Virus record (IMG/VR): IMGVR_UViG_3300030376_005008
Location: 1-61,055 of that record
DNA length: 61,055 nt
Strand: one strand, 5' to 3'
DNA from: a virus
Lineage: Duplodnaviria > Caudoviricetes
The translations under genes and the position numbers were made by a program. The notes beneath the pieces are model-generated. The model was given only the letters and a program-made list of their open reading frames with translations, was not told the origin of the DNA and did not search any database. Positions within the stretch are counted from its first letter, which is position 1, and every line of letters starts with the position of its first letter. This document shows positions 1 to 15,397 of the stretch, one piece after another.

Positions 1-156
1 GCTTTCGATGCTGAACAAGGTAGACGATTTGATGCAAGCCGTATACCTACTCATGAAGCCGAATCCCCAACGCCTGTAAATCTCGGTATCAAAGACGATG
101 TTCCTCTTACAAAGGATGGAAAGCCCGATAAGCGATACCTAAAGAAAGGTGAGTGA
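1..156 (+). CDS. 3' end of a hypothetical protein (partial, begins before the window)
   Basis: Frame +1 is open from base 1 to TGA at 154-156 (...DVPLTKDGKPDKRYLKKGE*). It ends in a basic KDGKPDKRY motif. Confidence 0.6.
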   Translation, partial: AFDAEQGRRFDASRIPTHEAESPTPVNLGIKDDVPLTKDGKPDKRYLKKGE

Positions 157-161
157 AGTGT

Positions 162-416
162 ATGGGCCGTATCTTCAAAACTCCATCCGATAATGCCACG
201 GAGGAAACCCTCCGAGCGATGCATATCGCGAACACCGTAGATACGACTTATGAACGCACTTGGGGTTGGCTCAAGACCATAGTTGCGTCTGCTATTACCG
301 CTTTAGTAATTAGTGGTTTTGAATTTCATAATCCTGAGTTTAGCCTTTGGGAAAACACTGCTGATTGGGCTGCTGGTAAACTTGTAGATTTTGCTAATTG
401 GATTAAATGGTGGTAA
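162..416 (+). CDS. Small membrane protein
   Basis: ORF track gives 153..416. ATG at 162 follows a GGTGA RBS at 148-152. Hydrophobic segment WLKTIVASAITALVISGF and an amphipathic Trp-rich C-terminus. Confidence 0.7.
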   Translation: MGRIFKTPSDNATEETLRAMHIANTVDTTYERTWGWLKTIVASAITALVISGFEFHNPEFSLWENTADWAAGKLVDFANWIKWW

Positions 417-419
417 CAT

Positions 420-1133
420 ATGCCTGACCCGACTGGAACCGCACTGGTTGGTGCGGCAATGTGGGGGCAGATGCTTTACCATACTTATCGTCCTCGTAAA
501 GTCGGAATCTACGGCACTCCGATGGTTGGTAAAACAACTCTTGACCGATACATGACTACACCGGGCGAGATGGAAGAAATAGAAGAGCGCACAAGTCATA
601 GTCGTATTCTCAAATTAGGAAACTTCAGGATGCCTAAGCCTACACGAAAACGACTTTCGTGGAATAATGAGCGCCGTCTTGTATTTTCATCCGACGTTGG
701 AGGAGATACTCGATTTTGGAATCTTTGGGTGGAAGATATGGTTACGCGTGGAGTTGAGGCTGTAGTATATATGTTCGATGACCGTGCGTTCAAAGGTGAA
801 GACGCTGGAGAGCAAATTGCTGGATTTCGCTTTCTTGTTGACAGAGTTATTGCTCGCGATTATCGTTACCGCTCTATTTGGTCACGATTGAAGGGTCGTC
901 GTTACCACCCTCGTATCGTCATGCTCGTTGCAAATAAGGCTGACCGCTTCTTTGATGAAACTGCATCTAAGTTGTGGAAAGACGGTCGAATCGCTGAGCA
1001 CAAGATATTCGACCCGTTCCGTGACGACCTCATACGATTGCAGAAAGCGGGTATACCTACAAAGCGCTCATTCATGGCTACACGTATTGGTTGGAATGTG
1101 GAAAAGACGATGTTGGACTTGTTGACCCTTTGA
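420..1133 (+). CDS. Small GTPase of the Ras superfamily, Arf/Sar-like
   Basis: G1 GTPMVGKTT, G3 DVGG within DVGGDTRFWNLW (compare Arf DVGGQxxxRxLW), AVVYMFD strand, G4 LVANKAD, and an N-terminal hydrophobic/amphipathic segment. Confidence 0.85.
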   Translation: MPDPTGTALVGAAMWGQMLYHTYRPRKVGIYGTPMVGKTTLDRYMTTPGEMEEIEERTSHSRILKLGNFRMPKPTRKRLSWNNERRLVFSSDVGGDTRFWNLWVEDMVTRGVEAVVYMFDDRAFKGEDAGEQIAGFRFLVDRVIARDYRYRSIWSRLKGRRYHPRIVMLVANKADRFFDETASKLWKDGRIAEHKIFDPFRDDLIRLQKAGIPTKRSFMATRIGWNVEKTMLDLLTL

Positions 1134-1168
1134 GTGACCTTTATGTGGAACAGGAGTGTGGGATAGTC

Positions 1169-1339
1169 ATGGTCAGCACGCGCCTTGTCTCTACAGGCGG
1201 AACAAGTCGTAGTTTACGCACAACCGTTCCTCAATGGGTTGTAGAACATTTTTCTCTCACTCCCGGTGACGCTGTTAACTGGGCACTAAAGGTTGAGAAT
1301 GGTGAAGTGTCTCTTGTTGTGACCCCGAAAAAGGATTGA
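1169..1339 (+). CDS. AbrB/MazE/SpoVT-like DNA-binding protein
   Basis: SLRTTVPQWVVEHFSLTPGDAVNW matches the swapped-hairpin pattern. The likely start is ATG 1169 (ORF track 1091..1339). Confidence 0.75.
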   Translation: MVSTRLVSTGGTSRSLRTTVPQWVVEHFSLTPGDAVNWALKVENGEVSLVVTPKKD

Positions 1340-1345
1340 TTTTTT

Positions 1346-2266
1346 ATGATGATGCGACCAAATGAACAAGTGTCGTTGGCGAGTGTCAATGAGGCTCATT
1401 TGTCTATGCTCGCCGCACAAGGAAATGAACAACTAACTCAAGCCGCTCTTGCAGAAATGGTTAACGCACAACAGGCTATGCAAGTAGCCGCTGAAGTGCA
1501 AAACATTGAGGTTCCTAGGGTTAATTTTTATCCAAGTCGTCACTCTGATGGACGAAAGGCTCGACGCAAGGACATAAAACAAGCCTACAAGTTATTGACT
1601 CCTGCAAAACGTTCGATTTTTAGCCCCCTTCGTTGGGCTGGAAACAAATATCGTTACAATAAGGACACTGGTGTGTGTGTTGTGGATGGTTGTAATTGTG
1701 GTGAATTGATTAAGCATGATAATCTCTATATGCGAATATGTGATGAAGATACAGGCCGTAGTTTATGGGAAATGTATTGGCAAAATCCTGTAACTGGTCA
1801 GGCTGAGGCGTTTATTGCACAGAATAAAGTCACAAGTGGTAGTAAAATGAGAGGCACTTATTGTCCTGAGCACCTCCATCTTTTCCACCTCTTGAAGAAA
1901 TGGGAGACAGAAGAAGACAAACAGAATGAAATGAATCCTAATCGCCTTCGTGATAAGGTTAAGCGTGGTGTTTCTATTGTGACTGTGCCTGTTGCATCTG
2001 TAAAGAAGAAAGACCCTCAACCAGCAATGCTTGCAAAGTATGAACCATTCTTTGCTGAACTTGAGAGGGATGCTGGTAAGACAAAAGGCATTAGTATTCT
2101 TCATTACAAGAATCCGGTGACTAACGTAAATGATGTCACGATGATTGTCTTCGACCTTCGTATTTTCCAAGCAGAACTTGAGGCTCTAAATACTCCTACT
2201 CAAGCGTTTCAAAATTTAGTTGCACAACAGAACATTGATTCGGGACAGGCTCTTGGGGGTGAGTAG
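1346..2266 (+). CDS. Hypothetical protein with Cys/His metal-binding motifs
   Basis: 306-aa ORF with CVVDGCNC and YCPEHLH motifs and a Q/A-rich helical N-terminus. Confidence 0.75.
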   Translation: MMMRPNEQVSLASVNEAHLSMLAAQGNEQLTQAALAEMVNAQQAMQVAAEVQNIEVPRVNFYPSRHSDGRKARRKDIKQAYKLLTPAKRSIFSPLRWAGNKYRYNKDTGVCVVDGCNCGELIKHDNLYMRICDEDTGRSLWEMYWQNPVTGQAEAFIAQNKVTSGSKMRGTYCPEHLHLFHLLKKWETEEDKQNEMNPNRLRDKVKRGVSIVTVPVASVKKKDPQPAMLAKYEPFFAELERDAGKTKGISILHYKNPVTNVNDVTMIVFDLRIFQAELEALNTPTQAFQNLVAQQNIDSGQALGGE

Positions 2267-2899
2267 ATGTTTGGCTTCAGTAATCAACCAGCACAACCCG
2301 GTTCATTGAATCTTTCAGCAACAGGTGCGCCTGTGGGTGCCCAGCAGTCATTCGGTTTTGCCCAACCTGCTATGCAACAAAATCCCATGATGGGTGGTAT
2401 GATGGGTGGTATGGGGATGACCCCACAACAGCAACAATTTGTGCAGCAACCTGTTGCACCCCCTAGTGAGTTAGAGATACTTAACGCATTACTCGTTTCA
2501 CAGAATCCTCTTCATCGTTTCATCAAGGATGGAGGTCTAGGGATGTTAGTTGAGATTATAGCAGCCACAACGACGCTTTCTCTTCTTACTGTTCTCAAAG
2601 ATGCTACTTTCGCAATTGATGAAGAAGAAGGCGGAATGAAGTTAGACCAAGCGAGCCTTCCTGATAATCTCAAGACGTTAAGTGCTGAGAATGTTGGTAT
2701 CCTTCTCAATCAAATGATTGCTAATAGCACTCAAACTGTTCAACAAGCAGAAATGCAACGCCAGCAAATTATAGCAATGTCTCAACAATCCATGATGGGA
2801 GGTGCACTTCAAGCCGCACTTGCTGATGAGGGGATGATGGAGAAGGTCGGAGGGGGCATCGGAAGTGTTGCACGTTCCTTCATGGGTTTACCTAAGTGA
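2267..2899 (+). CDS. Hypothetical protein with Q/M/G-rich N-terminus and hydrophobic helices
   Basis: 210-aa ORF abutting the previous stop, GGTGA RBS, hydrophobic stretch LGMLVEIIAATTTLSLLTVL. Confidence 0.75.
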   Translation: MFGFSNQPAQPGSLNLSATGAPVGAQQSFGFAQPAMQQNPMMGGMMGGMGMTPQQQQFVQQPVAPPSELEILNALLVSQNPLHRFIKDGGLGMLVEIIAATTTLSLLTVLKDATFAIDEEEGGMKLDQASLPDNLKTLSAENVGILLNQMIANSTQTVQQAEMQRQQIIAMSQQSMMGGALQAALADEGMMEKVGGGIGSVARSFMGLPK

Positions 2900-3165
2900 T
2901 TGATATGATACCTACACCAAGAGATGCTATCGAAATCCCAATGAGGGGACTTACGAGTTCCAGTATTGATGTGTTTGCACCAAATCGCTCTGTTATTACA
3001 GACATGATTATGGTGCAATTTATTAGCATCATTGTGGTGTTTTTCGCTCTGTTACTCTTCAAAGGTCAAACTCTTTCTTCTACAGATGTGAGTTTAGCAT
3101 TAGTTGGGATATTTAGTGCGTCTATGATGCTGGGCACTATTTACTCACGTTTGACTCGTGGTTGA
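2896..3165 (+). CDS. Small two-TM membrane protein
   Basis: 89 aa with two hydrophobic segments (IMVQFISIIVVFFALLLF; VSLALVGIFSASMMLGTIY). GTGA overlap with the upstream stop. Confidence 0.7.
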   Translation: MIDMIPTPRDAIEIPMRGLTSSSIDVFAPNRSVITDMIMVQFISIIVVFFALLLFKGQTLSSTDVSLALVGIFSASMMLGTIYSRLTRG

Positions 3166-3384
3166 CCATTTCCCTTTTGGACATTCCATACTCGGTAATG
3201 CGGCTTTAATACGCATTACACAACCACATGAGCGGCATAACCCTGCTCTCTTCATGAGCAACGGACAAGTATCACAAATCGAGAGACGCCGAGCATATTC
3301 TATTTTTGTAACTCGTTTGTTTTTAATGACATCAGAACTCGCTTGAACGAGTTCACCGGGAATCCGTTTGAGACGCCGAGGCAT
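3145..3384 (-). CDS. Small Cys-rich Zn-binding protein (DUF6171-like)
   Basis: RRLSICDTCP...CRSCGC...CPKGKW pattern, common in viral small proteins. Confidence 0.7.
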   Translation of the reverse strand: MPRRLKRIPGELVQASSDVIKNKRVTKIEYARRLSICDTCPLLMKRAGLCRSCGCVMRIKAALPSMECPKGKWSTTSQT

Positions 3385-3443
3385 AGTCAGTCGCTATCGC
3401 CTTCCCTGAAAAGGATTATCTCCAATGCCGCTTTAAGCGCACC

Positions 3444-4127
3444 ATGACCGGAGCGGAGCGTGTCTCTAAGCGGTCTTGTCCATTTTGCCAACATCCAAGT
3501 CGCGATGAGTTAGAAGAAGCACTTCTGTTGGGCGAAATCTCTCCAAAACAACTTGACCAAGATATGGGATGGCGTTTCAATACGGCTGACCGTCATTATC
3601 GAAATCACATGGGACAATTCCATATGGCTTCTAATCCTCAATGTAAGGTTTGTAGCCACCCGCAACGTGCTGAGTTTGAAGAGAGATTTTTCGCAGATGG
3701 TTCACAATCTGATGCTATTGCTGAAGAAGTCGGTGTTGCTGAATCTTCTGTATATCACCATATGAAACATCACTTTCAACCGATGGTTCAAAGAGCGGCT
3801 GTTGCTGAGGTCGCGATGGTAGTGGGGCGCGAGGTAGATGCACTCAGGTCGAATGTCGAACTTCTCAACCATAAGTTGTCTGAATTGCTCGGCGAGGGAA
3901 GTGTTCACGAAGACGGCTTTGTTCGGGATGCAGTGTCCTTGCACAAAGAAGTCAGAGAATCCTTGAAGGATTTGATGAAGATGCAGGAAACTTGGGGTCC
4001 GACTACTGAAAATGGGGAGATTCACAATACCATCAATATCTTGAAGGTTGAACTTGGAAAAGAAAGTCCTGAATCTTGGGCGCGTATTCGTGAGAAGTTA
4101 GTAGGACATGTGGAGGACTTAGAATGA
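3444..4127 (+). CDS. Tandem CxxCxH...HxxxH Zn/HTH protein, putative terminase small subunit
   Basis: Two repeats (CPFCQHP...HYRNH; CKVCSHP...HMKHH) followed by a coiled coil. It is the first gene of the operon leading to the large terminase. Confidence 0.55.
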   Translation: MTGAERVSKRSCPFCQHPSRDELEEALLLGEISPKQLDQDMGWRFNTADRHYRNHMGQFHMASNPQCKVCSHPQRAEFEERFFADGSQSDAIAEEVGVAESSVYHHMKHHFQPMVQRAAVAEVAMVVGREVDALRSNVELLNHKLSELLGEGSVHEDGFVRDAVSLHKEVRESLKDLMKMQETWGPTTENGEIHNTINILKVELGKESPESWARIREKLVGHVEDLE

Positions 4128-4519
4128 TTCAAGTCCCTGTGCCTGACCTCCTCCAAATGACTCATCCGGGTTATGTTAATATCAAAAGTGAAGTTAATCT
4201 TTCACATCTCCCTGCTATACTCGACTATTCTCGTTGTTTAGTAGAGCGGTTTGAACATTATGGGGATGTGAAAATTTCCCCTTCTGACATGTTCCCTATA
4301 CTTGGTAAGATGTTTGAAACATTAAACACAGAAGATGACCCCGCTATTGTTCTCCCAGTTCGTATGCAACTCCCACGTGTTCTTGAGGAGTTTGAAGCCA
4401 TGACTGAGAAAATGTGTCAAGCCTTCCCAATGAATGCGAACATTAAGAAAATTTATCGCGATATCTCAGAATATTACTACGAGATGTTCGATGTGCTTAC
4501 TGGGGGTGAAAACGAATGA
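4124..4519 (+). CDS. Hypothetical protein
   Basis: 131-aa ORF with ATGA overlaps on both sides and a GGAGG RBS. Confidence 0.7.
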   Translation: MIQVPVPDLLQMTHPGYVNIKSEVNLSHLPAILDYSRCLVERFEHYGDVKISPSDMFPILGKMFETLNTEDDPAIVLPVRMQLPRVLEEFEAMTEKMCQAFPMNANIKKIYRDISEYYYEMFDVLTGGENE

Positions 4520-5706
4520 CTGGTGGTATGATGGGTCGAACTTCTGATACTCGGATGTATAATCCTCATTCTGAATCTTCTCACATGTATCGTGAGAATC
4601 ACGAAGAGGAATCCACTCGAACTGGATACGAAGACCCTCGTGATGTTGATGCTAAGGCTGACCGTCGTCAGAAGAAAAAGGAAGCCGAGGAGAAAGAAAA
4701 CCGAAAGATTCGCCATATTAAGGTCCGCCGTCATCACATGGGTCTTGGTGAAAAAGAACCATCGGGAGAAATGCCTGAAGAAGAATCTGAGTTTAAGCCA
4801 CGTGAATCGCCATCAGAACCAACAATCCCTGCTGGTGCTGGTGGATTCCTAACAAGCCTTGCTGCTCAAGCAAAAGGTCCGGGCGCTGCCGCTGGTCAAA
4901 TGGTTCAGATGAGCGAGCCAATGGAGCATGCTTGGTCTGAGTTGTTGAAATCAAAGCGTAAGACCGAGAAGCAACGCAAGAAAGAACAACGCGCAAAGTG
5001 GCGACCATCCACTGGTAAGTTCAAGCGACCTCGTGGTGGATACACTGGACGTTCAGGAACATCTGCTCGTGCTAAGTTACTTTCTCGACACATCAAAGGT
5101 GGGCGTAAGTCAGGTCTAATGCTCCCTCATCTTGCTGTTGAGATGTCTCACCGTGGTGTTGCGTCCAAGCAACCAATGTCCAAAGACCCACAAGCATACA
5201 ATCAGTATCGTGCTTACCAAGAGCAGCAAAACATTCTTGGAAACGTCCGCCCACAACGTGGTGCGCGCCTTCCTTCTTCTCAGATTCGCATGCCGCAGGT
5301 TCCTAAACCTCGACTCAAGCCCCATCGCATTGCACCGATTCAGCCCCCGGCCATGCGTAGACCTCATCTTGTTCAACCAAAGATGCCCAGCATGGTGACC
5401 ATGAGCGAAGATGAACCTGTTAGTTCTGATATTCTGAAGGCTGCTAATCGCCATCTCCTAATTGAGATGCGAAATGAACTCAAGCAACTCAAAGAGATGA
5501 TGAAACGTCGCGACCGCGATAGTAAGAGGAAGGGTATGGGAGAGCCTGATACTGCTGGTGCAGCATCGACATTACCAAAATATCCCGGCAACAATCCAAA
5601 ACAAACTACTCGTCCTGAGGGCGCAACCGAAGATGAGAATGATGCTCGCACTTGGGGCCTCGACCCAATCGGAGGCATAGTTGGTCGAGGAGGAAACCGA
5701 GCATGA
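4516..5706 (+). CDS. Basic, disordered hypothetical protein carrying an EPMEHAWSELLK tag
   Basis: 396 aa, R/K/P-rich. Internal motifs MSEPMEHAWSELLKS (~4909-4953) and SSDILKAA. Confidence 0.75.
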   Translation: MTGGMMGRTSDTRMYNPHSESSHMYRENHEEESTRTGYEDPRDVDAKADRRQKKKEAEEKENRKIRHIKVRRHHMGLGEKEPSGEMPEEESEFKPRESPSEPTIPAGAGGFLTSLAAQAKGPGAAAGQMVQMSEPMEHAWSELLKSKRKTEKQRKKEQRAKWRPSTGKFKRPRGGYTGRSGTSARAKLLSRHIKGGRKSGLMLPHLAVEMSHRGVASKQPMSKDPQAYNQYRAYQEQQNILGNVRPQRGARLPSSQIRMPQVPKPRLKPHRIAPIQPPAMRRPHLVQPKMPSMVTMSEDEPVSSDILKAANRHLLIEMRNELKQLKEMMKRRDRDSKRKGMGEPDTAGAASTLPKYPGNNPKQTTRPEGATEDENDARTWGLDPIGGIVGRGGNRA

Positions 5707-8027
5707 GTTACATCATGGTGCGTAAGTCACTCATCATCAAGGGTGATGGTGTCTATGCGTATCATAACGGAGTCCCTCATCTTCTAACTGCGCCTCCACC
5801 TGAGGCTTTTGGTATTGGTCCCGATGGAATTGATGCACCTGCGTTTGCTCATCTTGGAGCCGCAGCACCTCATGCCAGTGGTCATCCCGGTATGGGTGAG
5901 TTACTTCCCGGTAAATTCCGTCGTGGTAAATACGGTGAAACTGCTTGGCATGATGGAGATTTTGACCACTTTCACGGCCATGATGGTGTATGGCATCAAA
6001 TCGGAAAAGCGCTTGAAGAGAGCGGTATGCTTGGTAAAGAACATCCTGAACTGGGTAAATTAACTCCTGATAATATCCTTCAACGTTCAATTACTGAGCA
6101 TAACAGAAAACACCATAGCGAAAATAATTTTCATGCGCTTCCTGATGTAGATAGCCCTGAGTGGAGAAAAATCAATACTGCTTCTTGGACTGGAAAAAGT
6201 GCGTCAGGAAGACCTAATAGAAATTCTGATGGAAAACTGATAACTGGTTTCACTAATCGCGGTGAAGACCGGGCCAAGATTGGGCATTTTGTTGAGTCAT
6301 ATTCCGTGCCTTACAATCAAGAACTTCAAGAAATTATGCTCCATACCCTTGGTCTTCAGCAATATGCACAAGAAGAGTGGCTTTCTCGCAATTACATTTC
6401 TATTGATGACCTCGATAGCGGCGCTCGTCGTGGAAAGAGAATCAAAGGTTATGGTGGTGACCGAATAGGGGACAAAGGGCAACTTCCTGATATGCATCTT
6501 GACGATAGACATGATGCTCCTCATCAACGTATTCAATCTTGGGAAGTCGCTCACCATCTTCCTGATATGTTTCATTACAAGTTAAATCGTCAACCTACGA
6601 GTTCTGATATGGGTAGTGCCATGCAACATATTGAGATGGCTATGGGGTCAATCGACCCTAACAAAATACCTGATGTGATGGTTCCAATCAATACGGCTCA
6701 AACTGCTGGTGGGACAGATTACAACATGCAGCCTTTACGCACTGCACTTCGTGACCCAACCATGAGGCAAAATCTTGTAAAAGAATTAGCAAGAACTCCA
6801 GCATTTCATTTTATGTTTGGAAGAGTAAAGGCTGGTGGCTCTCGCCCAACTCCTTCTTCGCGTATGTTCCAACATCTTTTGGAACAATTTGGCGGAGACA
6901 ACTTTGATGATGCTAAATCACACGTAACCGCTGGGCCACACATGCGAATGCCTGATGGTTCAAAAGCAGGAACCAGTGGAAAAGGCACACACACAAACGC
7001 TGCTAATTTCTTCACAAAAGTAATGCTTGGTGGGCCTCATGAAGAAGGGCCGAGTGCCATGCGTCATTACCATCCTGACGAAGATGTGCTTCAGTCATTT
7101 GGTGTTGATACGGGAAGTGCGGAAACTGCTGATGCAAGAAGACAAGCAGTTGAAGCAATAGGCGACCTTATTTCAGAATCACAAGGTCATCAAACTCGCC
7201 GTCCTGTTCCTGAAGATATTCCAACTGGTGCACTTAGGTCAAGTCGTGTTCAAGGTTATCCAGAACCTGATGCTCTTATTGACCGACTCCCTCCTCACAT
7301 TCCGTTTTCCACGGACCTTTCTATGCCCCCAATGGCTTCGGGACCACCCCGTGAGCGCACACCACCCACTCCTTCGGCGGCGCCGTCCCCGTCGAGAGAG
7401 GCCAGCCCTCCTCCGCTGGCGACCCCCCAACCTCCTACAAGGGCGGCACCTTCTCCTCAAACGAGATTGGACGACCCTAGATTTAGGCAACAACGTCCTT
7501 CCACTATGCAAGAAGAGTTCCAACGTCGTTTGGCTCGTGGGCCAAACCGAGCACAGCCGCCTGAACTTGTGCGCGTTCGTCGTGATGTTGGTGGCTATGA
7601 GCCTCAGCAACTTCGTCAGTTTATGCAAGCAAGTGGTATTGGTCCTCGACCCGGTGTCGGTGAACTTACCCCTCAAGAACAACAATTCCAACAAACATTC
7701 GGTGACCCTCGCCAGCAGTTGATTGAACAATATTTGAGAAGCCTTGACGAGTCACTCCCTGAGGCTGACCGTTTATTGAAGGCAATGGAAACCATGCAAC
7801 GAGATGATGCGATGGGTGACGACATGGTCATGAAACATGCCCTTACTCGTCCAGTTAATATCGCTGACAATCACGGTGTGAGCCACCTTGCTAAAATGGT
7901 AGGTCTAACTCCACTTGATGTTCGCTCTATTGCACACCAAACAGGTGATTGGAATCGTATTGCAAAGCGTCTTAATGTTTCTGACAATGTTGTGAAGGTC
8001 ATCAAAGTAAGCATCGGAGGTGTCTGA
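5703..8027 (+). CDS. Large hypothetical protein, His/Gly-rich with a Pro-rich linker and C-terminal HTH-like region
   Basis: ORF track gives 5652..8027. The likely start is ATG 5703 (ATGA overlap). C-terminus LAKMVGLTPLDVRSIAHQTGDWNRIAKRLNVSDNVVKVIK is HTH-like. Confidence 0.75.
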   Translation: MSYIMVRKSLIIKGDGVYAYHNGVPHLLTAPPPEAFGIGPDGIDAPAFAHLGAAAPHASGHPGMGELLPGKFRRGKYGETAWHDGDFDHFHGHDGVWHQIGKALEESGMLGKEHPELGKLTPDNILQRSITEHNRKHHSENNFHALPDVDSPEWRKINTASWTGKSASGRPNRNSDGKLITGFTNRGEDRAKIGHFVESYSVPYNQELQEIMLHTLGLQQYAQEEWLSRNYISIDDLDSGARRGKRIKGYGGDRIGDKGQLPDMHLDDRHDAPHQRIQSWEVAHHLPDMFHYKLNRQPTSSDMGSAMQHIEMAMGSIDPNKIPDVMVPINTAQTAGGTDYNMQPLRTALRDPTMRQNLVKELARTPAFHFMFGRVKAGGSRPTPSSRMFQHLLEQFGGDNFDDAKSHVTAGPHMRMPDGSKAGTSGKGTHTNAANFFTKVMLGGPHEEGPSAMRHYHPDEDVLQSFGVDTGSAETADARRQAVEAIGDLISESQGHQTRRPVPEDIPTGALRSSRVQGYPEPDALIDRLPPHIPFSTDLSMPPMASGPPRERTPPTPSAAPSPSREASPPPLATPQPPTRAAPSPQTRLDDPRFRQQRPSTMQEEFQRRLARGPNRAQPPELVRVRRDVGGYEPQQLRQFMQASGIGPRPGVGELTPQEQQFQQTFGDPRQQLIEQYLRSLDESLPEADRLLKAMETMQRDDAMGDDMVMKHALTRPVNIADNHGVSHLAKMVGLTPLDVRSIAHQTGDWNRIAKRLNVSDNVVKVIKVSIGGV

Positions 8028-9404
8028 ATGAAAGATGTCGGTGTTTTGCGAAAGCAGGATAATTTTGTCGGTGTTTTGCGAAAGCAAGTCGAAGGTGAAA
8101 TCCAAATGACACCGGGTGAGGGCGCTCGTTTTGTTCAAACATTACCCATAGGTAATAGAGGAAAAAGAGAACAAATGCCACTTCGTGGTGGTCGTAGTTA
8201 TGAAGAAATGCGTGATGCTCAAACAGCAGGTGAGAAAGCAACACAAAAATTACAAGATATTCGTAGTAAAAGAGTGCCACTTACTGAGCAAAGCGCAATT
8301 GACCCTGTTCAGTTTAGTGAAGCACAAGCCGCTCAAAGAATGGAACAAATGGATGCCCCATTGTATGAATCGACAATAGAAGAGGCACAACCACAAACAT
8401 ACAAAGAGCAGTATGGACTTCAAGCAGCACAACGTGCTCAACCCGGTCAAGAAGCAACGGCATACAGTCGTGGTGGATTAGGTGGGACAACAGGGCGAAC
8501 TGTTGGTGCTGGGCTTGCTGGTGCCTATGGTGGGCTTCAGGCTCTTCTTGCATTAAATCGAGCAGGTGCTTCGGGTCAAGATTTACCGAGTGCTCTCGGT
8601 GGTTCTGCTCTTCAAGGTATGACGAGTTACGGAACAGTTGCACCGACTGCTCAGAATATTGGAGGCGAGGTTGGAAGTAGAGTCGCTGTCCGTGGTGGAC
8701 AAGTAAAAGACCAAGGACAAAAAATTGCTCAAGGTGTAAAAGTCCAAGGACAAAAAATTGCTCAAGGTGTGAAAAACCAAGGTCAAGATTTTGCTCAAAG
8801 TGTTAGAGAACGCATGCGACCTGCTGAGCCGACTGTTGCTGGGCCTACTGGACCCCCTCCTCCTCGTTATCCACTCGCTCGCACCGGACCGTCGTATCTA
8901 GGTGAAACTCCTTTTACTCATACAGCACCTACGAGTTTCCAACAAAGACAATTTATGGGTGAAGCAGATGCACGAAGTCACGCAAATGAAAGGCTTCGTA
9001 GGCAAGGTCTTCCAAGGCTTCCTTCTTTGTTTAGTCCTATAGAAAAACCACCAGCAGCACCAGTTCTTGTTACGCCTCCAGTCGCTGGACCTATTGGTCC
9101 TCCACCTACTGCCCCAGTTCCTGTTGCTCAACCTGCTAGTCAAACTAATTTATATGATGGCAAATTCGCCCCTCCAGTCGCTGGACCTACTGGTCCTCCA
9201 CCTACACCTACACCTATTGGTCAAACCACATATGACCAATTTACACAACCTGCCGCACCAACTCCCGCCGCACCAACTCCCGCCGCACCAACTCCCGCCG
9301 CACCTAACTCTAACATGTTAGATGCTTTTACAGAGCAAGTAATAGCAGGGCAAAATGCAGCAGCCGCCAGTAGTTCCACTGTAAGCAAACCTCACGGAGC
9401 GTGA
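8028..9404 (+). CDS. Low-complexity Q/P/A/G-rich hypothetical protein
   Basis: 458-aa ORF with GGAGGTG RBS and several internal tandem repeats. Confidence 0.75.
   Translation: MKDVGVLRKQDNFVGVLRKQVEGEIQMTPGEGARFVQTLPIGNRGKREQMPLRGGRSYEEMRDAQTAGEKATQKLQDIRSKRVPLTEQSAIDPVQFSEAQAAQRMEQMDAPLYESTIEEAQPQTYKEQYGLQAAQRAQPGQEATAYSRGGLGGTTGRTVGAGLAGAYGGLQALLALNRAGASGQDLPSALGGSALQGMTSYGTVAPTAQNIGGEVGSRVAVRGGQVKDQGQKIAQGVKVQGQKIAQGVKNQGQDFAQSVRERMRPAEPTVAGPTGPPPPRYPLARTGPSYLGETPFTHTAPTSFQQRQFMGEADARSHANERLRRQGLPRLPSLFSPIEKPPAAPVLVTPPVAGPIGPPPTAPVPVAQPASQTNLYDGKFAPPVAGPTGPPPTPTPIGQTTYDQFTQPAAPTPAAPTPAAPTPAAPNSNMLDAFTEQVIAGQNAAAASSSTVSKPHGA
8036..8086 (+). repeat. Two exact 21-bp direct repeats (TGTCGGTGTTTTGCGAAAGCA), period 30 bp
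   Basis: Copies at 8036-8056 and 8066-8086, encoding VGVLRKQ twice. Confidence 0.9.
8703..8801 (+). repeat. 33-bp coding tandem repeat x3 (VKxQGQKIAQG)
   Basis: CCAAGGACAAAAAATTGCTCAAGGTGT occurs twice, followed by a degenerate third copy. Confidence 0.85.
9252..9305 (+). repeat. 15-bp coding tandem repeat (GCCGCACCAACTCCC; AAPTP) x3.5
   Basis: Directly visible tandem copies. Confidence 0.9.
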
Positions 9405-9408
9405 TTAA

Positions 9409-10893
9409 ATGGAAAAGCGCGAAGCCGAGATGAAGGAACTCGTTATCGAGATGGACAAGAAGATGTCCGCTCGCTCGTTCAAGTATTTCTTTGAAACAGT
9501 TCTCGGCTTCGATTATGCCTACCATCACGGTATGTGGGACAAAGGTCTTACAGACAATCGCTACTATTGTGTAAAAGCGTCTCGTGACCATGGTAAATCT
9601 GTTTTCTTCATGTCATATGCTCTGTGGCTCGCTGCTTTCAATCCGGGTAAACACATCATGATTTTCAGTCACTCGTTGGAGCAGACACTGGAACACATGC
9701 GTTTCATTCGTGGTAACATCGACACATCACCTTGCCTTCAAGAATTGAAGCCGGGTGGTATTCCATGGCGAAAGACCTACTTTGAGTTCACCAACGGTAG
9801 TCGTATCATGGCTAAGTCGGTCGGTGGAGGAACTCGTGGTTTCCACCCTGACATTGTTCTATGTGACGATATTCTTTGGGGCACAACTGGTTCTGAATTG
9901 CAACGTGCTGCTGATTGGTTCTATGGTGTATTGCTTCCAGTTCTTCACCATACGGGTCGTTTGATGATGGTGGGAACGCCGTTTAGTTACAACGACCTCT
10001 ATGCTCAGTTGGAAAAGACCGAGACATTCCAAGTTGAAACATATCCAGCCATCGACAAAGAAGGCGAAGCACTGTGGCCTGAGCGTTGGAGTTTGGAAGC
10101 ACTTGACCAACGTCGAATGTCCATGCCAGCGATTCAGTTTACTCGTGAATATCTCTGTGAGCCGATTCACGACGTTGCGAGTATGTTCCCGATGGAACTA
10201 CTTGAGAAAGCACGTGACCATGACCTCAAAATCCTCGACCACGCAGAGCGTGATTTCAACGAAGAAGGAGAAGACATTGGTGTATTCGGTCAACATTTCA
10301 TTGGCTGGGATACAGCGATTGCATCTGACAAGAACGCTGACTTTACCGCTATGACTGTAATGCGAACAATCCCTGATGAAGACATTAAACAGATTGTTGG
10401 TATTGTTCACGAGAAGGGTATGTCGTCTATGGCGCAGAAGCGTCAGATTATCATTCTCAATAACAAGTTCCAACCTGACCTCATCGAACTTGAGGGTAAC
10501 AACTTCCAGCGAATGTTTGCTATGGAGTTACAAGACATTCGGCAAGACATTCCAATTCGCACTTTCATGACTACGCGCACGAAGAAAGAAAGCCTATTCA
10601 TGTCGCTTCTTCTTGCATTTGAGCAAGGGCAAATCAAGACACCGTATGGCGACGACCGCTCTCGTCGTTTTACTCATAAGTTGGAAGAAGAACTCAATCG
10701 CTTCGGAATGCAGAAGAGCGGAAGGCTTGAGTCCGTAGGCACGCACGACGACTTGGCTATGTCACTTGCGTTGGCGAACTGGGCAACTAAAGAATTCCGT
10801 GGAAGTGTTGTTATGCTTGATGATTATATGCCCGGTTTCGATGAATGGATAACGGGTAAACCTCGTAAGAAAGATGGATGGATGATACCATGA
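9409..10893 (+). CDS. terL: Terminase large subunit
   Basis: Walker A ASRDHGKS, Walker B IVLCDD, coupling motif VGTP, and RNase H-like nuclease acidic residues IGWDTA, DFTA, HDDLAMSLALA. Confidence 0.95.
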   Translation: MEKREAEMKELVIEMDKKMSARSFKYFFETVLGFDYAYHHGMWDKGLTDNRYYCVKASRDHGKSVFFMSYALWLAAFNPGKHIMIFSHSLEQTLEHMRFIRGNIDTSPCLQELKPGGIPWRKTYFEFTNGSRIMAKSVGGGTRGFHPDIVLCDDILWGTTGSELQRAADWFYGVLLPVLHHTGRLMMVGTPFSYNDLYAQLEKTETFQVETYPAIDKEGEALWPERWSLEALDQRRMSMPAIQFTREYLCEPIHDVASMFPMELLEKARDHDLKILDHAERDFNEEGEDIGVFGQHFIGWDTAIASDKNADFTAMTVMRTIPDEDIKQIVGIVHEKGMSSMAQKRQIIILNNKFQPDLIELEGNNFQRMFAMELQDIRQDIPIRTFMTTRTKKESLFMSLLLAFEQGQIKTPYGDDRSRRFTHKLEEELNRFGMQKSGRLESVGTHDDLAMSLALANWATKEFRGSVVMLDDYMPGFDEWITGKPRKKDGWMIP

Positions 10894-11750
10894 AAGAAGA
10901 AAAAGTTGGAAAGAAACCTAAGGGTATGGTCGTTGTTATCTCGGTTGGTAAACCGGGTGGGAAGAAACCTGAGCGAGAGGCTGACCCTGATACGAAGAAG
11001 AAAGCACAAACACGTGATAACGACGATGCTAAAGCGAGATTTCTTTATGATAGATTACCTGATGAAGCATTTGGGATAACTCCTCAAGTAGAAAATCCAG
11101 CGACAGGTTACAATCGAAGAATGATGGTAGATGACCTTCACACAGACATAGCAGGTGGCCTTGAGCCGGGAATACCCTTTGAAGACCCTCATATGGAACT
11201 TCGTCTTGACCCTGAGGAAAGAGAGTTAAATCGCCTCCAAGGTGTTCAAGGAGATTCTCCTAATATTAGACCGAGGCTCCATTCTTTGCATGGTTCAAAA
11301 CACTCACCGTTACAAGATATTACTAATCCTAATTACCTTGCTCAACCATTTTTGATTCCACAACATGAGTGGGTAGATGCCCCATTATCATTAGATATGT
11401 TGCTTAATCCAGCACCTCAAGGCACGGATGAAAATAAAATCAGATATCAAGATGGTGAACGGCAAGAACTTCGTCAAGTTGGTCGCATGCACAATCCTAA
11501 TGTAGATTATCGTAAGTGGATACAGAAACCAATGAAAACCGCAGTGCAACAAAGACGCGGTGAGGGTATAATCCAAAGAGGTGCTCCTATAGATTTGGCT
11601 TGGCGTTTGTTGAAAAATACTCCTATTGACCCCGCTGATGAAAGTAGAAGCGGTATGGGGCGCTGTAAATTCTGCGGAACTTATGCTGTTAATTTCAATC
11701 CATATGGTATTGGTGAATGTGCTGAGTGTGGAAGGCAAAATTACAGGTGA
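10890..11750 (+). CDS. Accessory protein with an internal PIDLAWRLLK tag followed by a Zn ribbon
   Basis: ORF track gives 10878..11750, and ATG 10890 overlaps the terL stop. Tag at 11586-11615, then CKFC...CAEC. Confidence 0.75.
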   Translation: MKEEKVGKKPKGMVVVISVGKPGGKKPEREADPDTKKKAQTRDNDDAKARFLYDRLPDEAFGITPQVENPATGYNRRMMVDDLHTDIAGGLEPGIPFEDPHMELRLDPEERELNRLQGVQGDSPNIRPRLHSLHGSKHSPLQDITNPNYLAQPFLIPQHEWVDAPLSLDMLLNPAPQGTDENKIRYQDGERQELRQVGRMHNPNVDYRKWIQKPMKTAVQQRRGEGIIQRGAPIDLAWRLLKNTPIDPADESRSGMGRCKFCGTYAVNFNPYGIGECAECGRQNYR

Positions 11751-11755
11751 TTAAG

Positions 11756-12343
11756 ATGAGTCCATTTGAAGTGTCATGGTATCTTCTGAAAATGGGCGGA
11801 AGCCCCCGTGCTCAAATAGGTTATGACCACTTACCTACAGAGATGAACTATGATGCTGTGACTCAGTTTCTTCAAAGTAATCCAAATGCGACAATGGGAG
11901 ACATGATGGCTCCTTATCTCAGAGGTCAGTTCACCAATCCTTCCTCCGAAGTTTTTACTGACCCACGCTCTTATCAAAGTGGTAATTTACCATTCCCAAT
12001 GACGGAACGTGAGGCCAGTTCATTTGCATCTAAATTCCAAACAGATGATGGTTATTCAATACCTGAAAATTACATTTCCGGCGGTCACATTGCTGCTGAC
12101 CGCCCTTTACTCATGAATACGATTCGCACATTACAAGGTCGACTAAGGCAAATGCCGGATGCGTTTGAGTTTCAACCCACTGAAAACCGCATTCGACCAA
12201 ACATGACTTCACGACCCACAGGAAAAATGGCTCGCCTTGGACAAAGATTTGAAAATTATATGAATACTCCTGTTGCCGTGCGGCAAGCAACCATGATTCC
12301 ACCGACACCTACTGCTTCTACAACACCGGAGATGCTTGCATGA
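11756..12343 (+). CDS. Accessory protein with an N-terminal PFEVSWYLLK tag
   Basis: ATG 11756 follows an AGGTGA RBS (ORF track 11726..12343). Confidence 0.7.
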   Translation: MSPFEVSWYLLKMGGSPRAQIGYDHLPTEMNYDAVTQFLQSNPNATMGDMMAPYLRGQFTNPSSEVFTDPRSYQSGNLPFPMTEREASSFASKFQTDDGYSIPENYISGGHIAADRPLLMNTIRTLQGRLRQMPDAFEFQPTENRIRPNMTSRPTGKMARLGQRFENYMNTPVAVRQATMIPPTPTASTTPEMLA

Positions 12344-12416: not shown

Positions 12417-13634
12417 ATGTGGGGGTCATTAGTGATAGATGAGTCACCCGCCTCTATCGAGCAGGAATTGAAAATCAATACTTTCAGCAAGTCCTACCAA
12501 TTTCCACCGAATGGTGATGGTTGGTTTGAGGCTAAGATGGGTTGCTCTGCTGGTAATCTTGTAAAACGACTTCGTAAAGCACGCCGACACAACAAAGATA
12601 ATGTCGGTGAGATTGATGCGTTTATTGATGATATTCGCACAATTAAGTCAATTGAAACAGAGATGACAATTCGTAATCTTTCATGGGGGCATGAACATGA
12701 AAGTTCAATCAAAAATCTTGGTTTATCTGATAGGTCATTGAAACATCTTCGTCAATTCGGTGAGTCAAGAGCGGTATCTCTTCAAAAAGCATGTCTTCTT
12801 TGGGACAAGGCTGATACGACACTCAAGATGTTAGATGAGCATGAAGATGTATGGGGTGAAGAAGAGCAACGCGCTTGGGCATCTGCTATGCGTGATAGAA
12901 CTGATGCTCGTAAAATGTGGAGAACTGCGCTTTTCCAATCTGACAAATTAACTAAGAAAGAACAAGATTACCTTGAGTTTGCCTCTGAAGAATTACTACA
13001 CAAAGGGCCGATGCGCGCTGTAGACATTATGGATAATCTTAGTGAAGAAGGCATCATCCATAAGGCATACACCGATAAGAAATTGGCTCGTCTTATCTCA
13101 CTTTATGGTGAAGAATACGATATCATGAAGGGAGGGGAAAGAGGCACTTATGTGAGAGTAACTCATGATGGTCTTGTTCTGAAAGATTCATGGGCTTATG
13201 GGGCAGGTTTCCTTGATGCTGATGGTTACATTACCATTACTGAAAGAGGAGAGCCTCGTGCTGGTATGATTGCGACTGGTGAGCGTGGTCGTATTCATTG
13301 TGAAGACCTTTACAAAACTCTTGATTGTGGTATTTTGCAATTAAACAATAAGGTCCATAAGAATTCAAAACGCAGTCAACATCGCCTTCAATTCTATTCT
13401 AAAGCAGACCTTCGTAAGTTCCTCACTGGCGTTTTACCTCATTTGAAAATGAAATCTACTCAAGCAAAGGCAGTTTTAGCATATATTGATGAGAAGGATA
13501 GGACTCGGAAGGAAGAGTTGAAGCGCCTCGTGAGGTTCAAAAACTGGGAAGACGATGAGAAAAAATCTGTGGAACTCTTGTCTTCTTGGGGTGTTGATGC
13601 AGATACAATTGGGAAATACGCGGAGGGATTATAA
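12417..13634 (+). CDS. Protein with a C-terminal LAGLIDADG endonuclease-like domain
   Basis: YGAGFLDADGYITI motif, followed by HRLQFYSKADLRKFLTGVLPHLKMKSTQA, typical of the LAGLIDADG fold. Long helical N-terminus. Confidence 0.8.
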   Translation: MWGSLVIDESPASIEQELKINTFSKSYQFPPNGDGWFEAKMGCSAGNLVKRLRKARRHNKDNVGEIDAFIDDIRTIKSIETEMTIRNLSWGHEHESSIKNLGLSDRSLKHLRQFGESRAVSLQKACLLWDKADTTLKMLDEHEDVWGEEEQRAWASAMRDRTDARKMWRTALFQSDKLTKKEQDYLEFASEELLHKGPMRAVDIMDNLSEEGIIHKAYTDKKLARLISLYGEEYDIMKGGERGTYVRVTHDGLVLKDSWAYGAGFLDADGYITITERGEPRAGMIATGERGRIHCEDLYKTLDCGILQLNNKVHKNSKRSQHRLQFYSKADLRKFLTGVLPHLKMKSTQAKAVLAYIDEKDRTRKEELKRLVRFKNWEDDEKKSVELLSSWGVDADTIGKYAEGL

Positions 13635-15397
13635 TGGCAGAAGACGATGAACAAGGACCGGTTAGTCGCTTCTTATCGGCTCTTGCAAGTCCTTTCCGAC
13701 GGCGCACTACGCCTCAGCCACAGATGCCTCTGTATACCACTGGTATACAGGAGCCTGTTCTTGCACAAGGAATTACACTTCCTGCTTTGTATGCAGTGAG
13801 TCATGAAAATCTCATTCTCCGAACTGTCCAATCTAAACTGAATCAGGAAGTTTTCCGACGTGGTTATCATTGGGAAAAGAAGTTCCGCAAGAAATGTGTA
13901 GAATGTAATGAAGAATTTCAACATGAAATTGAATCTTGTAATGCATGTGGAGGTCAAGTTCGTGACCCTGACCCTGAGCAAGTGATTTACCCGAAGTGGC
14001 TTTTGAATCAAGAAAACTCTATGGAACAGACCTTTATGCAAGTGCTTTCTGAGATTGAGAATGATTTGAATATTGTTGATGATGCATTCCTTATTCTTGT
14101 TAAGGAATATTATGTGGATGTTGATACGGGTGATGTTCAATTTTTCCGTGTGAAAGAAATCATTCGTGGTGACCCCATCTTCATGCGAATTATCGCGGAT
14201 AAGCGTGGTGTTCGTGGCGGTCGATACAAGATTTGCAGAATACATCGCGACCAAGTGGCTTACCCCGGTCAAGAAAACGCTTGTCAAGTGTGTGGGTCAA
14301 AACTTGTTGATGCTCATTATGTAAACATGGCTGGGTCAGGGAAAAATCAATACTATACTAAGGGTGAGATTATACATATTAGTAAGTATAATCCATCTAA
14401 ATTGTATGGTCGTAGTCCTGTTAATACAATGTGGCGTCAAGCAATGAGCCTCACAGCGATGGATAATTATATCTATACTGCATATCAGAAACGTCGAACT
14501 CCGAAAGGTATCATTTCCGTAACGACGGATAACCTTGAGTCAATGAAATCGTTTTGGAAGTCCGTTGATGAAAAGATGGAACGTGACCCTCATTATGTTC
14601 CTAAAGTTGGAATCGAATCCTCCAGTGGCCGTGGTGGTGTGAATTGGGTTAAGTTCATGGATACACTTGAAGAGATGCAATACATCGCTGTTCGTGATGA
14701 AATACGAAATCGTATTGCGGCTTACTATGGTGTTTCTAGTATTTTCATGATTGACAATGGTAAGTCCGGTGGCCTCAATAACGAAGGTATGCAAATTCTT
14801 GTGACAAATCGTGCTGTTGAGTTTGGTCAAAAGGTCTACACTGAGACATTATTCCCACGAATGCTACGACAAATGGATGTTAGTGATTGGAAATTAACTC
14901 TTTATCCCAATGAAGAAGAGGATGAAATCACCCGTCTTCGACGCGATGAAATGGAAGTCAACTTGGCACAGAGAATGCAAATGTTAGGTTATCAACCTGA
15001 ACTAATGGAAGAAGGTGACCGAGACATTAGATTCGTTTATCGTAAGCAAGAGCAAGCGCAAGAGCAAGCACCTCCTCAGGGTGGAGGGATGCCTCCCGGT
15101 GGAGGGATGCCGATGCCTCAGGGTGGAGGGATGCCGATGCCTCAGGGTGGAGGGATGCCGATGAGAAGTAGTGCACCCCGTGGAGGAGGTATGCCAATGC
15201 CGCCTATACCGCCGTCGCAACCCGGTGGTGAAGGTATGGGGATAAGAACACCTAGAAGTCCAGCAAGGCCACAGCAACGTGGTTCACCCGGCGCTGGCTC
15301 TCCTATAACAAGCGTTCAGCAACGCGGTCCACCAGAAACTCTTCAGCAAAAAAACTCTAATGCTTTGATTGACTCGCGAAGACCTCGTGGAGCATAA
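13634..15397 (+). CDS. Portal protein
   Basis: Position after terL. EIIHISKYNPSKLYGRSP, MQYIAVRDEIRNRIAAYYGVSSIF and LVTNRAVEFGQ are portal-like segments. It also carries Zn-ribbon insertions and a P/G/M/Q-rich tail. Confidence 0.9.
   Translation: MAEDDEQGPVSRFLSALASPFRRRTTPQPQMPLYTTGIQEPVLAQGITLPALYAVSHENLILRTVQSKLNQEVFRRGYHWEKKFRKKCVECNEEFQHEIESCNACGGQVRDPDPEQVIYPKWLLNQENSMEQTFMQVLSEIENDLNIVDDAFLILVKEYYVDVDTGDVQFFRVKEIIRGDPIFMRIIADKRGVRGGRYKICRIHRDQVAYPGQENACQVCGSKLVDAHYVNMAGSGKNQYYTKGEIIHISKYNPSKLYGRSPVNTMWRQAMSLTAMDNYIYTAYQKRRTPKGIISVTTDNLESMKSFWKSVDEKMERDPHYVPKVGIESSSGRGGVNWVKFMDTLEEMQYIAVRDEIRNRIAAYYGVSSIFMIDNGKSGGLNNEGMQILVTNRAVEFGQKVYTETLFPRMLRQMDVSDWKLTLYPNEEEDEITRLRRDEMEVNLAQRMQMLGYQPELMEEGDRDIRFVYRKQEQAQEQAPPQGGGMPPGGGMPMPQGGGMPMPQGGGMPMRSSAPRGGGMPMPPIPPSQPGGEGMGIRTPRSPARPQQRGSPGAGSPITSVQQRGPPETLQQKNSNALIDSRRPRGA
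15073..15163 (+). repeat. Coding tandem repeat (P)QGGGMPMP in the portal C-terminus
   Basis: CCTCAGGGTGGAGGGATGCC(GATG) occurs about 4 times. Confidence 0.85.

Follow-up and report, generated by a model that had tools for sequence, protein, structure and literature searches.

The window analysed here is the entire virus record IMGVR_UViG_3300030376_005008, 61,055 bases long, which is classed as a virus and about 57% complete, and near its start it carries a cassette of genes around a small GTPase. An earlier sequence-only reading had proposed this cassette as a candidate membrane-remodelling or egress module, and all the open reading frames (ORFs) that it named were recovered at the same coordinates. 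The GTPase gene (420-1133, + strand) encodes a divergent Arf/ArvA-like small GTPase of 237 amino acids (aa), whose N-terminal helix is amphipathic and which carries a P-loop, a switch I lengthened by a basic insertion, a DVGGD motif and NKAD. It is followed by two ORFans on the same strand. The first is a Cys/His protein of 306 aa (1346-2266) with a conserved basic helix, Cys-x(2-4)-Cys and GTYC-x2-H; it was without PDB or Pfam match, and none of its 610 relatives carried a Pfam domain or a name. The second is a Q/M/G-rich protein of 210 aa (2267-2899) made up of an N-terminal low-complexity part, a conserved core with an LSAEN-type motif and a Q/M-rich tail, likewise without Pfam or PDB match.

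Small membrane proteins flank these three genes. Immediately upstream of the GTPase, o153 (153-416, + strand; GTG at 153, ATG at 162) encodes 87 aa with a single hydrophobic segment, probably a single-pass transmembrane (TM) protein, and ends 3 nucleotides before the GTPase start. Downstream of the Q/M-rich gene, o2896 (2896-3165, + strand) encodes a small 2-TM protein of 89 aa with segments at residues 37-55 and 65-83. At 1-156 (+ strand) the window start cuts into a gene for a 2-TM protein whose tail is a basic coiled coil, leaving its C-terminal 51 aa; in lineages A-C of the survey described below this gene opens the cassette, and its full-length orthologue was found at locus L002 (5117-5737, 206 aa).

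Sequence and structure of the GTPase

The G1, G3 and G4 motifs were found in order in the ORF at 420-1133 (GTPMVGKT; DVGGD, with a Trp at +11 from the Asp; NKAD) on a Rossmann-like G-domain fold, the pattern of a Ras-superfamily small GTPase (TRAFAC G domain). Residues G32, G37, K38, D92, G95, N172 and K173 were invariant in an alignment of 15 diverse members, and the P-loop, NKxD, the Asp and Gly of DxxG and the +11 Trp were intact in 177/177 surveyed loci. No Pfam family matched the GTPase of the window even at E ≤ 10, and PHROGs gave nothing usable. When 15 members were scanned singly, eight touched PF00025 at E < 1 (best 0.0048) and nine touched Roc, all far below threshold; the gathering threshold of PF00025, taken as the measure of Arf-family membership, was not reached.

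Searched against solved structures as a single sequence, the protein came no closer than about E 0.2-0.4, with Arl8 matched over switch II. The family profile matched 8oun_A (named only 'GTP-binding protein') at E 1.6e-6 with the N-terminal helix included in the match, and reached Arl8A/B at about 1e-4 over switch II (Arl8A, 1.1e-4), with Rab33B (1.6e-3) and Ras behind. An AlphaFold (AF2) model was built from the 15-member alignment; its predicted local distance difference test (pLDDT) was 87.9 and its predicted template modelling score (pTM) 0.85, and a helix at residues 4-23 preceded strand 1. The 22 best structural neighbours of this model were Arf/Arl/Sar proteins throughout, among them Arl8b (Z 18.1, root mean square deviation 2.3, 162 aligned), Arf6 and Arl1 (both 17.9), Arf1 (17.8), Asgard ArfR (17.3 and 16.8) and Sar1 (16.8), whereas the first non-Arf row was RagA-like (16.0), with Rab5 at 15.9. 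This gap of about 2 Z units between Arf-type and other families, obtained from a model, is suggestive rather than decisive. In a protein-language-model atlas the GTPase fell in Uroviricota clusters named 'putative GTPase domain-containing protein', and the next-nearest clusters were bacterial, with PF00025 in 17-67% of their members. Because fold, profile and atlas agree while the Pfam scores stay below threshold, the GTPase is described here as Arf-like in structure and switch II, yet outside PF00025 by that family's threshold. The Arf-like nature proposed earlier was thus borne out by structural neighbours and profile search.

The GTPase shares with the Arf family (Arf, Arl8, Arl1, Sar1, ArfR; PF00025) the DxGGQxxF/RxxW spacing of switch II and an N-terminal helix that appears amphipathic. 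Some viral members have His at the catalytic position, as does Sar1. On the other hand, the viral protein carries about 55 extra residues in three insertions, its catalytic residue varies between Q, E, D and H, and the Trp before the G3 Asp, which is typical of Arf, is not conserved in it; unlike Arf systems, the viral cassette is without ArfGAP, Sec7 or coat homologues and stands in a prokaryotic virus. The extra length was counted over the roughly 162 residues of the model that align to Arf proteins and, judged from the modelled secondary structure, falls for the most part behind helix 1 (about 47-74) and in the stretch from strand 4 to strand 5 (about 120-165); the basic insertion noticed in the sequence is real. 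The residue after DxGG was Q in 116, E in 42, D in 13 and H in 6 of the 177 loci, Gln being replaced in 61. Asp occurred in the immediate clade of the window and recurred in lineage C, in which switch II was frequently DxAG. The DVGGD motif to which attention had been drawn is thus present in the window, but it is lineage-specific and no trait of the family.

The N-terminal helix had been read as hydrophobic. A helix was indeed modelled, but its maximum KD19 hydropathy value over the first 40 residues was 0.48 in the window and at most 1.77 in any lineage, and its hydrophobic moment (muH) was 0.27 in the window, with lineage medians of 0.29-0.44, compared with 0.50-0.58 in three ArvA controls. 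From these values the helix is not a TM anchor and appears weakly to moderately amphipathic. The same value bears on another explanation of the cassette, in which the GTPase would be a targeting or insertion helper for viral membrane proteins, akin to the beta subunit of the signal recognition particle (SRP) receptor (SR), and the Met-rich protein would shield hydrophobic segments. An N-terminal TM anchor of the SR-beta type was not found in the window (KD19 0.48), the Q/M-rich protein showed no likeness to SRP, SR or Get components in PDB and Pfam, and the Met-rich idea comes from composition alone; we consider this explanation very improbable.

In a 90%-clustered collection, 469 of 714 candidate proteins belonged to the GTPase family at E ≤ 0.01, and some of them had been automatically named 'GTPase SAR1 family protein' by the Joint Genome Institute (JGI). 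Among 1.84 billion 50%-identity representatives, only 70 clusters matched the GTPase (E ≤ 0.001), about eight of them full length, and in a profile search of a 5.8-billion-protein collection all of the 120 matches listed were in-family. In BFVD, the top 50 structural neighbours all bore giant-virus names; one such giant-virus GTPase, 5xc5 (mimivirus Rab), was listed separately. The claim that small GTPases are unusual in tailed viruses agrees with this result, the fold being otherwise met in giant eukaryotic viruses. Like the viral GTPase described here, those of giant viruses are virus-encoded Ras-superfamily G domains; by name, however, they are recognisable eukaryotic Rab/Ran/Ras homologues, whereas the present one is without close cellular source and has its own partners and an archaeal host.

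Conservation and genome position of the cassette

According to a magrovirus description (PMC5434244), these are tailed viruses assigned to Marine Group II archaea; they are highly abundant in surface ocean water, have genomes of about 100 kb and carry a thermosome gene as well as a structural block like that of haloviruses. In the window we found a T4-type large terminase (9409-10893), a portal (13634-15397), a prohead protease (22293-23654), an SU10/HK97-type capsid protein (23690-24865) and, at the far end, a thermosome-type chaperonin fragment (60066-61037, - strand; PF00118, E 1.8e-74). The relatives of the GTPase sit on marine contigs of about 100 kb, many from Tara Oceans. The window is a magrovirus, that is, a tailed virus of Marine Group II archaea (Poseidoniales). 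Since it shows magrovirus traits, the earlier haloarchaeal framing was off target, and Haloferax as natural host was not borne out.

To describe the neighbourhood, 177 loci were compared from four magrovirus lineages: A, which is window-like (80 kept out of 143 relatives), B (4), C (13) and D (80 kept out of 140 relatives). Three divergent GTPase branches (P0127, P0173 and P0154) yielded no loci in viral contigs and lie outside the survey. By tblastn, o153, the GTPase, o1346 (Cys/His), o2267 (Q/M-rich), o2896, o3444 and o4516 stood in identical order in 80/80 lineage-A loci. In searches with hidden Markov models (HMMs), the Cys/His gene directly followed the GTPase in lineages A (80/80), B (4/4) and C (13/13), the Q/M-rich gene was present in A (80/80) and C (13/13), and o2896 in A (80/80) and C (12/13). 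The downstream genes of lineage D were too divergent for the lineage-A HMMs; with lineage-D seeds, both the Cys/His and the Q/M-rich gene were recovered in 73/73 loci having at least 1.5 kb downstream. When the families of lineages A and D were aligned by hhalign, the Cys/His proteins matched at 95% (E 3.8e-8) and the Q/M-rich proteins at 88% (E 3.2e-6). At the lineage-B locus L084, a 246-aa Q/M-rich ORF (7534-8274) was seen by eye after the Cys/His gene, at this one locus. The trio of GTPase, Cys/His and Q/M-rich genes is conserved in all four lineages sampled; a conserved neighbourhood, whose lack had been named beforehand as a reason to give up the idea of a module, was therefore strongly present. 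The basic helix, Cys-x(2-4)-Cys and GTYC-x2-H of the Cys/His protein form the stretch that is kept across lineages, and to judge by its residues it may be a zinc site.

The flanking membrane proteins were conserved to a differing extent. The upstream 2-TM family was found in A (76/76), B (4/4) and C (8/12) among loci having enough upstream DNA, and KD19 was at least 1.6 in 88/90 of its members. The o153 gene was present in 80/80 lineage-A loci, with a marginal maximum KD19 of 1.56 in the window, a family median of 1.68 and 48/80 members at or above 1.6; at L084, a 72-aa hydrophobic ORF unrelated to o153 occupies the same spot before the GTPase. The 2-TM nature of o2896 was robust (KD19 at least 1.6 in 92/92 orthologues), and this protein is holin-like in size and topology only. 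In lineage D another, non-homologous 2-TM protein stood upstream in 76/76 loci. Phage holin cassettes likewise hold small 1-2-TM proteins in the late region, at positions that vary between relatives; the viral cassette differs from them in being without endolysin, spanin or holin homology and in having a core of a GTPase and two soluble ORFans.

The position of the cassette varied. Lineage A has it 8 kb upstream of the large terminase gene, with the entire structural block encoded on that strand too; in the lineage-B locus L084 it lies about 1.5 kb from the thermosome gene (2820-4481, upstream of the cassette); and in lineage D it is found directly behind capsid and SAP-domain genes. The cassette is not fixed at one genome position. 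Its places in A and D bring up the main rival explanation, in which the trio is an accessory of virion morphogenesis or packaging and would serve as assembly chaperone, scaffold or checkpoint, and not on membranes. The lineage-D locus L105, with the cassette between capsid/SAP-domain genes and genes of structural size, speaks for such a role, as does the location upstream of the terminase in lineage A, and low-complexity Q/M-rich proteins could be scaffolds. However, we know of no tailed virus that uses a small GTPase for assembly, the constant neighbours of the trio are membrane proteins, and both the amphipathic helix and the resemblance to ArvA and Arf argue for a link to membranes. Moreover, the cassette changes place relative to the structural genes, a sign that its function may be autonomous. 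We therefore regard an assembly role as unlikely.

Relation to ArvA and origin of the GTPase

In the paper on ArvA (PMC10927574), this small GTPase is described as needed for the formation of extracellular vesicles in Haloferax volcanii and as having an N-terminal amphipathic helix; it is encoded with arvB (DUF2073) and arvC (DUF2072, Zn-ribbon), and HHpred puts it nearest to PF00025. Five arvABC loci from haloarchaeal and methanogen genomes were used for comparison. The viral GTPase profile matched ArvA in a local hhalign at 97.3% (E 2e-11), with 47 columns that run from the helix through strand 1 and the P-loop into the beginning of switch I, and in a global hhalign at 98.3% (E 2e-13), with 182 colinear columns and 23% identity. 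In a head-to-head hmmsearch, 17/17 ArvA proteins reached 17.6-25.8 bits, with matches that stayed within model positions 12-65, whereas 12/12 PF00025-type GTPases from the host phylum scored at most 5.1 bits. To judge by these profile comparisons, ArvA is the nearest cellular relative found, though only a distant one.

The two proteins are alike in length (about 213-240 aa), in the N-terminal amphipathic helix directly before strand 1, in a strand-1/P-loop signature of a basic residue, [IV]G[IV]YG and GKTTL, in an extended switch-I insertion with a T-R-basic motif, in NKxD and in an SA-type G5. In arvABC two small partner genes lie directly downstream of the GTPase, one of them of Zn type, which resembles the viral cassette with its Cys/His protein that may bind zinc. 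The differences are equally clear. The G3 of ArvA (OapA, HVO_3014 family) is DTPG, whereas the viral GTPase has DxGG/DxAG with the Trp at +11; the viral partners are unrelated to ArvB (hhalign ≤ 0.7%) and ArvC (≤ 0.3%); and only the viral cassette is flanked by membrane-protein genes. PF09846 (arvB) and PF09845 (arvC) were absent from the window, while the PF09846 control matched in Haloferax. The cassette resembles the Arv/Arf system in outline and is not an arvABC operon.

The host side was searched in 401 genomes of the phylum of a Thermoplasmata metagenome-assembled genome (MAG), which carry no taxon labels; in the thermosome-based search for host genomes a single-protein query gave no match and an alignment query worked. 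The viral profile matched 68/401 genomes, with a best E of 1.4e-5 (24.4 bits) and over model positions 9-84 only; the best cellular match was to the N-terminal third of ArvA. At 12 loci taken for the best of these matches, ArvA was found in 12/12 (E ≤ 8e-91), ArvB in 12/12 and ArvC in 9/12. Full arvA-arvB-arvC operons thus occur in this phylum, and the main text of the ArvA paper lists mainly Halobacteriota, Methanobacteriota and DPANN (PMC10927574). PF00025 matched in 112/401 of the same genomes; since E. coli and other controls were matched too, this signal is not specific. One apparent host match, full length and in a MAG labelled 'Flavobacteriales' (G001, E 4e-70), was read as a mis-binned magrovirus, a thermosome match adjoining it on a contig of about 101 kb.

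These results bear on the possibility that an ordinary host GTPase was captured recently, or that the gene is a decayed, inactive remnant, in either case without a dedicated module. Although the catalytic Gln is replaced in 61/177 loci and Pfam is blind to the protein, the nucleotide-binding motifs and the +11 Trp are kept in 177/177, conserved partners accompany the family through at least four lineages, in which identity falls to about 30%, only 70 matching clusters exist among the 1.84 billion representatives, and no host-phylum match was better than E 1.4e-5. Recent capture was rejected because no close host homologue was found in the genomes searched; the earlier view that the gene is no ordinary recent acquisition held among the 401 genomes, and the explanation as a whole is largely refuted, with hardly any likelihood left to it.

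A further explanation starts from the same genomes. The cassette might mimic or antagonise the ArvABC of the host, taking over or blocking vesicle formation in order to stop decoy vesicles or redirect membrane, without lysis. The host phylum carries arvA-arvB-arvC at the loci mentioned above, and the sole cellular matches to the viral profile in the 401 genomes were N-terminal parts of frames of about 210-370 aa, all 12 that were checked being ArvA. The similarity is nevertheless weak and centred on the P-loop region, and switch II has DxGG with Trp as against DTPG. The virus also supplies conserved partners of its own and so would seem to encode a self-contained machine. Interference with ArvABC is accordingly quite unlikely in our judgement, although it fares better than the SRP-receptor analogy.

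Proposed role of the cassette

Our tentative preference is to see in the cassette a GTP-switched module that binds the host membrane and remodels or breaches it so that virions can leave. Five points lead to this possibility. An Arf/ArvA-like switch with an amphipathic helix is in constant company of small membrane proteins. The cassette shares its strand with the late, structural genes, and no recognisable lysis gene was found in 41 ORFs. Finally, ArvA, as shown by experiment, and Arf1 and Sar1 act in membrane deformation, which for the latter two is a well-known role. The search for lysin or holin families covered 41 ORFs of the window with Pfam and 10 ORFs with PHROGs and returned none, in agreement with the sequence-only reading, which had recognised no holin/endolysin pair. 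One account (PMC10791045) states that the way in which tailed archaeal viruses lyse their hosts is unknown, and calls their exit from the cell completely uncharacterised.

In the proposed mechanism, the GTPase in its GTP state would bind the host cytoplasmic membrane through its N-terminal amphipathic helix and basic insertions. The Cys/His protein, which may bind zinc, would bind the GTPase as regulator or effector, and could be called GAP-like (GAP, GTPase-activating protein) by analogy only. A complex with the Q/M-rich and flanking small membrane proteins would then deform or breach the membrane late in infection and so let the virions leave. Membrane binding, contact between GTPase and partner, late timing and the egress role are all inferred. 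The Cys/His protein is a candidate direct partner of the GTPase, as regulator or effector. A co-fold of the two gave a weak score of 0.43, with 0.00 as the best of three controls, and was counted neither for nor against contact. The mark used was reached by 58/80 solved complexes and by 2/110 mismatched pairs, with runs agreeing on at least 91% of contacts; scores of 0.60 or less comprised 7 of the 80 solved complexes plus both passing mismatches, and partner pLDDT was at least 49.

Several observations weigh against the egress module. The muH of the helix in the window is weak (0.27 against 0.50-0.58 in ArvA), and classical GAP-assisted hydrolysis is uncertain because the catalytic residue varies between Q, E, D and H. 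Head genes surround the lineage-D cassette, and an assembly role would suit this place just as well. The viral partners resemble neither ArvB and ArvC nor any known GAP, guanine nucleotide exchange factor (GEF) or coat protein, and the model of the Cys/His protein was poor (pLDDT 64). The hydrophobic helix of the Q/M-rich protein is not kept as a TM segment (KD19 at least 1.6 in 20/93, and in 0/75 of lineage D), and the flanking membrane proteins of lineages A-C and D are not homologous (hhalign 0.2%), so that only their architecture is shared. The proposed function was derived from sequence, a structure model and gene context, and a part in lysis, vesiculation or a membrane compartment is putative. 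Within the membrane-protein cluster that had been proposed, o2896 stands as a robust 2-TM protein and o153 as a marginal 1-TM protein, while the Q/M-rich protein drops out. Of the membrane-remodelling or egress module as first suggested, the GTPase and the conserved cluster held; the host, DVGGD as a family trait and the TM helix did not, and only some of the neighbours are membrane proteins.

A bolder form of the same reading can be put forward, although we think it rather unlikely. The cassette would then be the long-sought means by which a major group of tailed archaeal viruses leaves its hosts, a self-contained vesiculation or lysis system of Arf/ArvA type encoded by the virus. Its GTPase would serve as a clock that sets the moment of membrane rupture or budding, together with non-homologous regulators and effectors of its own; the system may have come from a host ArvA and been rebuilt by the virus.

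Other genes of the window

Between the GTPase and the Cys/His gene lies an AbrB/SpoVT/MazE-like small DNA-binding protein (1169-1339, + strand), its frame open from TTG 1091 (82 aa) and its likely start being ATG 1169. It matched PF04014 at E 0.0035 in the window and at E 2.6e-5 to 3.5e-3 in 6/6 orthologues, all under the 24.7-bit cut-off; the AbrB-like regulator named earlier therefore has a signal in every orthologue, but each is below the cut-off. The gene is an accessory of lineage A, found by HMM in 80/80 loci (tblastn 71/80) and in none of B, C and D. Behind o2896, on the opposite strand within an otherwise single-strand block, is a gene for a Cys-rich small DUF6171 protein (3145-3384, - strand; PF19668 E 1.7e-9, 38.4 bits with a cut-off of 27; phrog_13558 2.1e-14). 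It occurs in lineage A only (HMM 52/80, tblastn 49/80) and is a variable accessory gene, probably outside the module.

Further downstream, the product of the gene at 3444-4127 (+ strand) is 227 aa long, has two CxxC pairs and gave weak helix-turn-helix-like matches (TetR_N and GerE, E 0.012-0.07); it may be DNA-binding or packaging-related. It was found downstream of the cassette in A (80/80) and C (12/13), with no match in B and D, and its membership in the module is uncertain. The o4124 gene was present in 50/80 lineage-A loci by tblastn. Between the cassette and the terminase region, the gene at 4516-5706 (+ strand) encodes a very basic, Lys/Arg/Pro-rich protein of 396 aa without family, found in lineage A by tblastn in 80/80 and by HMM in 78/80 loci.

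Two giant ORFs, of 6126 aa (35462-53842, + strand) and 1842 aa (16734-22262, + strand), make up about 39% of the window. The sole Pfam match of the former was Laminin_G_3/concanavalin-like at residues 134-223 (E 2.2e-6), and the latter matched nothing in Pfam. A SAP-domain protein was found at 31879-32427 (+ strand; PF02037, E 1.3e-5), and at the lineage-D locus L105 a 164-aa ORF (4487-4981) with a C-terminus that looks SAP-like by eye lies between the capsid gene and the GTPase cassette. Positions 1-12000 of the window gave no megablast match to the phage collection.

Significance

The GTPase nature of the gene is already in automatic annotation. The word 'GTPase' was absent from the main texts of the magrovirus papers PMC5434244, PMC10160649 and PMC11706807, whose supplements may list the gene, and, supplements aside, from those of a survey of archaeal Caudoviricetes (PMC8651126), an Aoguangviridae profile (PMC10768690) and a preprint on diel transcription (10.1101/2025.10.05.680483). 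Full-text literature on small GTPases in archaeal viruses, and on Arf-like ones in Poseidoniales or bacteriophage, turned up no description of the cassette; PMC11529989 reports Arf GTPases from an Asgard archaeon, in what may be a mobile element. Neither the conserved module nor its Arf/ArvA affinities and possible role seem to have been described before.

The cassette is a real, conserved and unusual feature and a putative small-GTPase membrane system of the Arf/ArvA kind in abundant archaeal viruses. It is a concrete candidate for the exit step of tailed archaeal viruses and, if this is true, GTPase-driven membrane deformation, the theme of Arf, Sar and ArvA, extends to viruses of prokaryotes. 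It also offers two protein families without known fold or function that are likely regulators or effectors of the GTPase. The weak but specific likeness to ArvA bears on the evolution of small-GTPase membrane systems and on their movement between archaeal cells and viruses.

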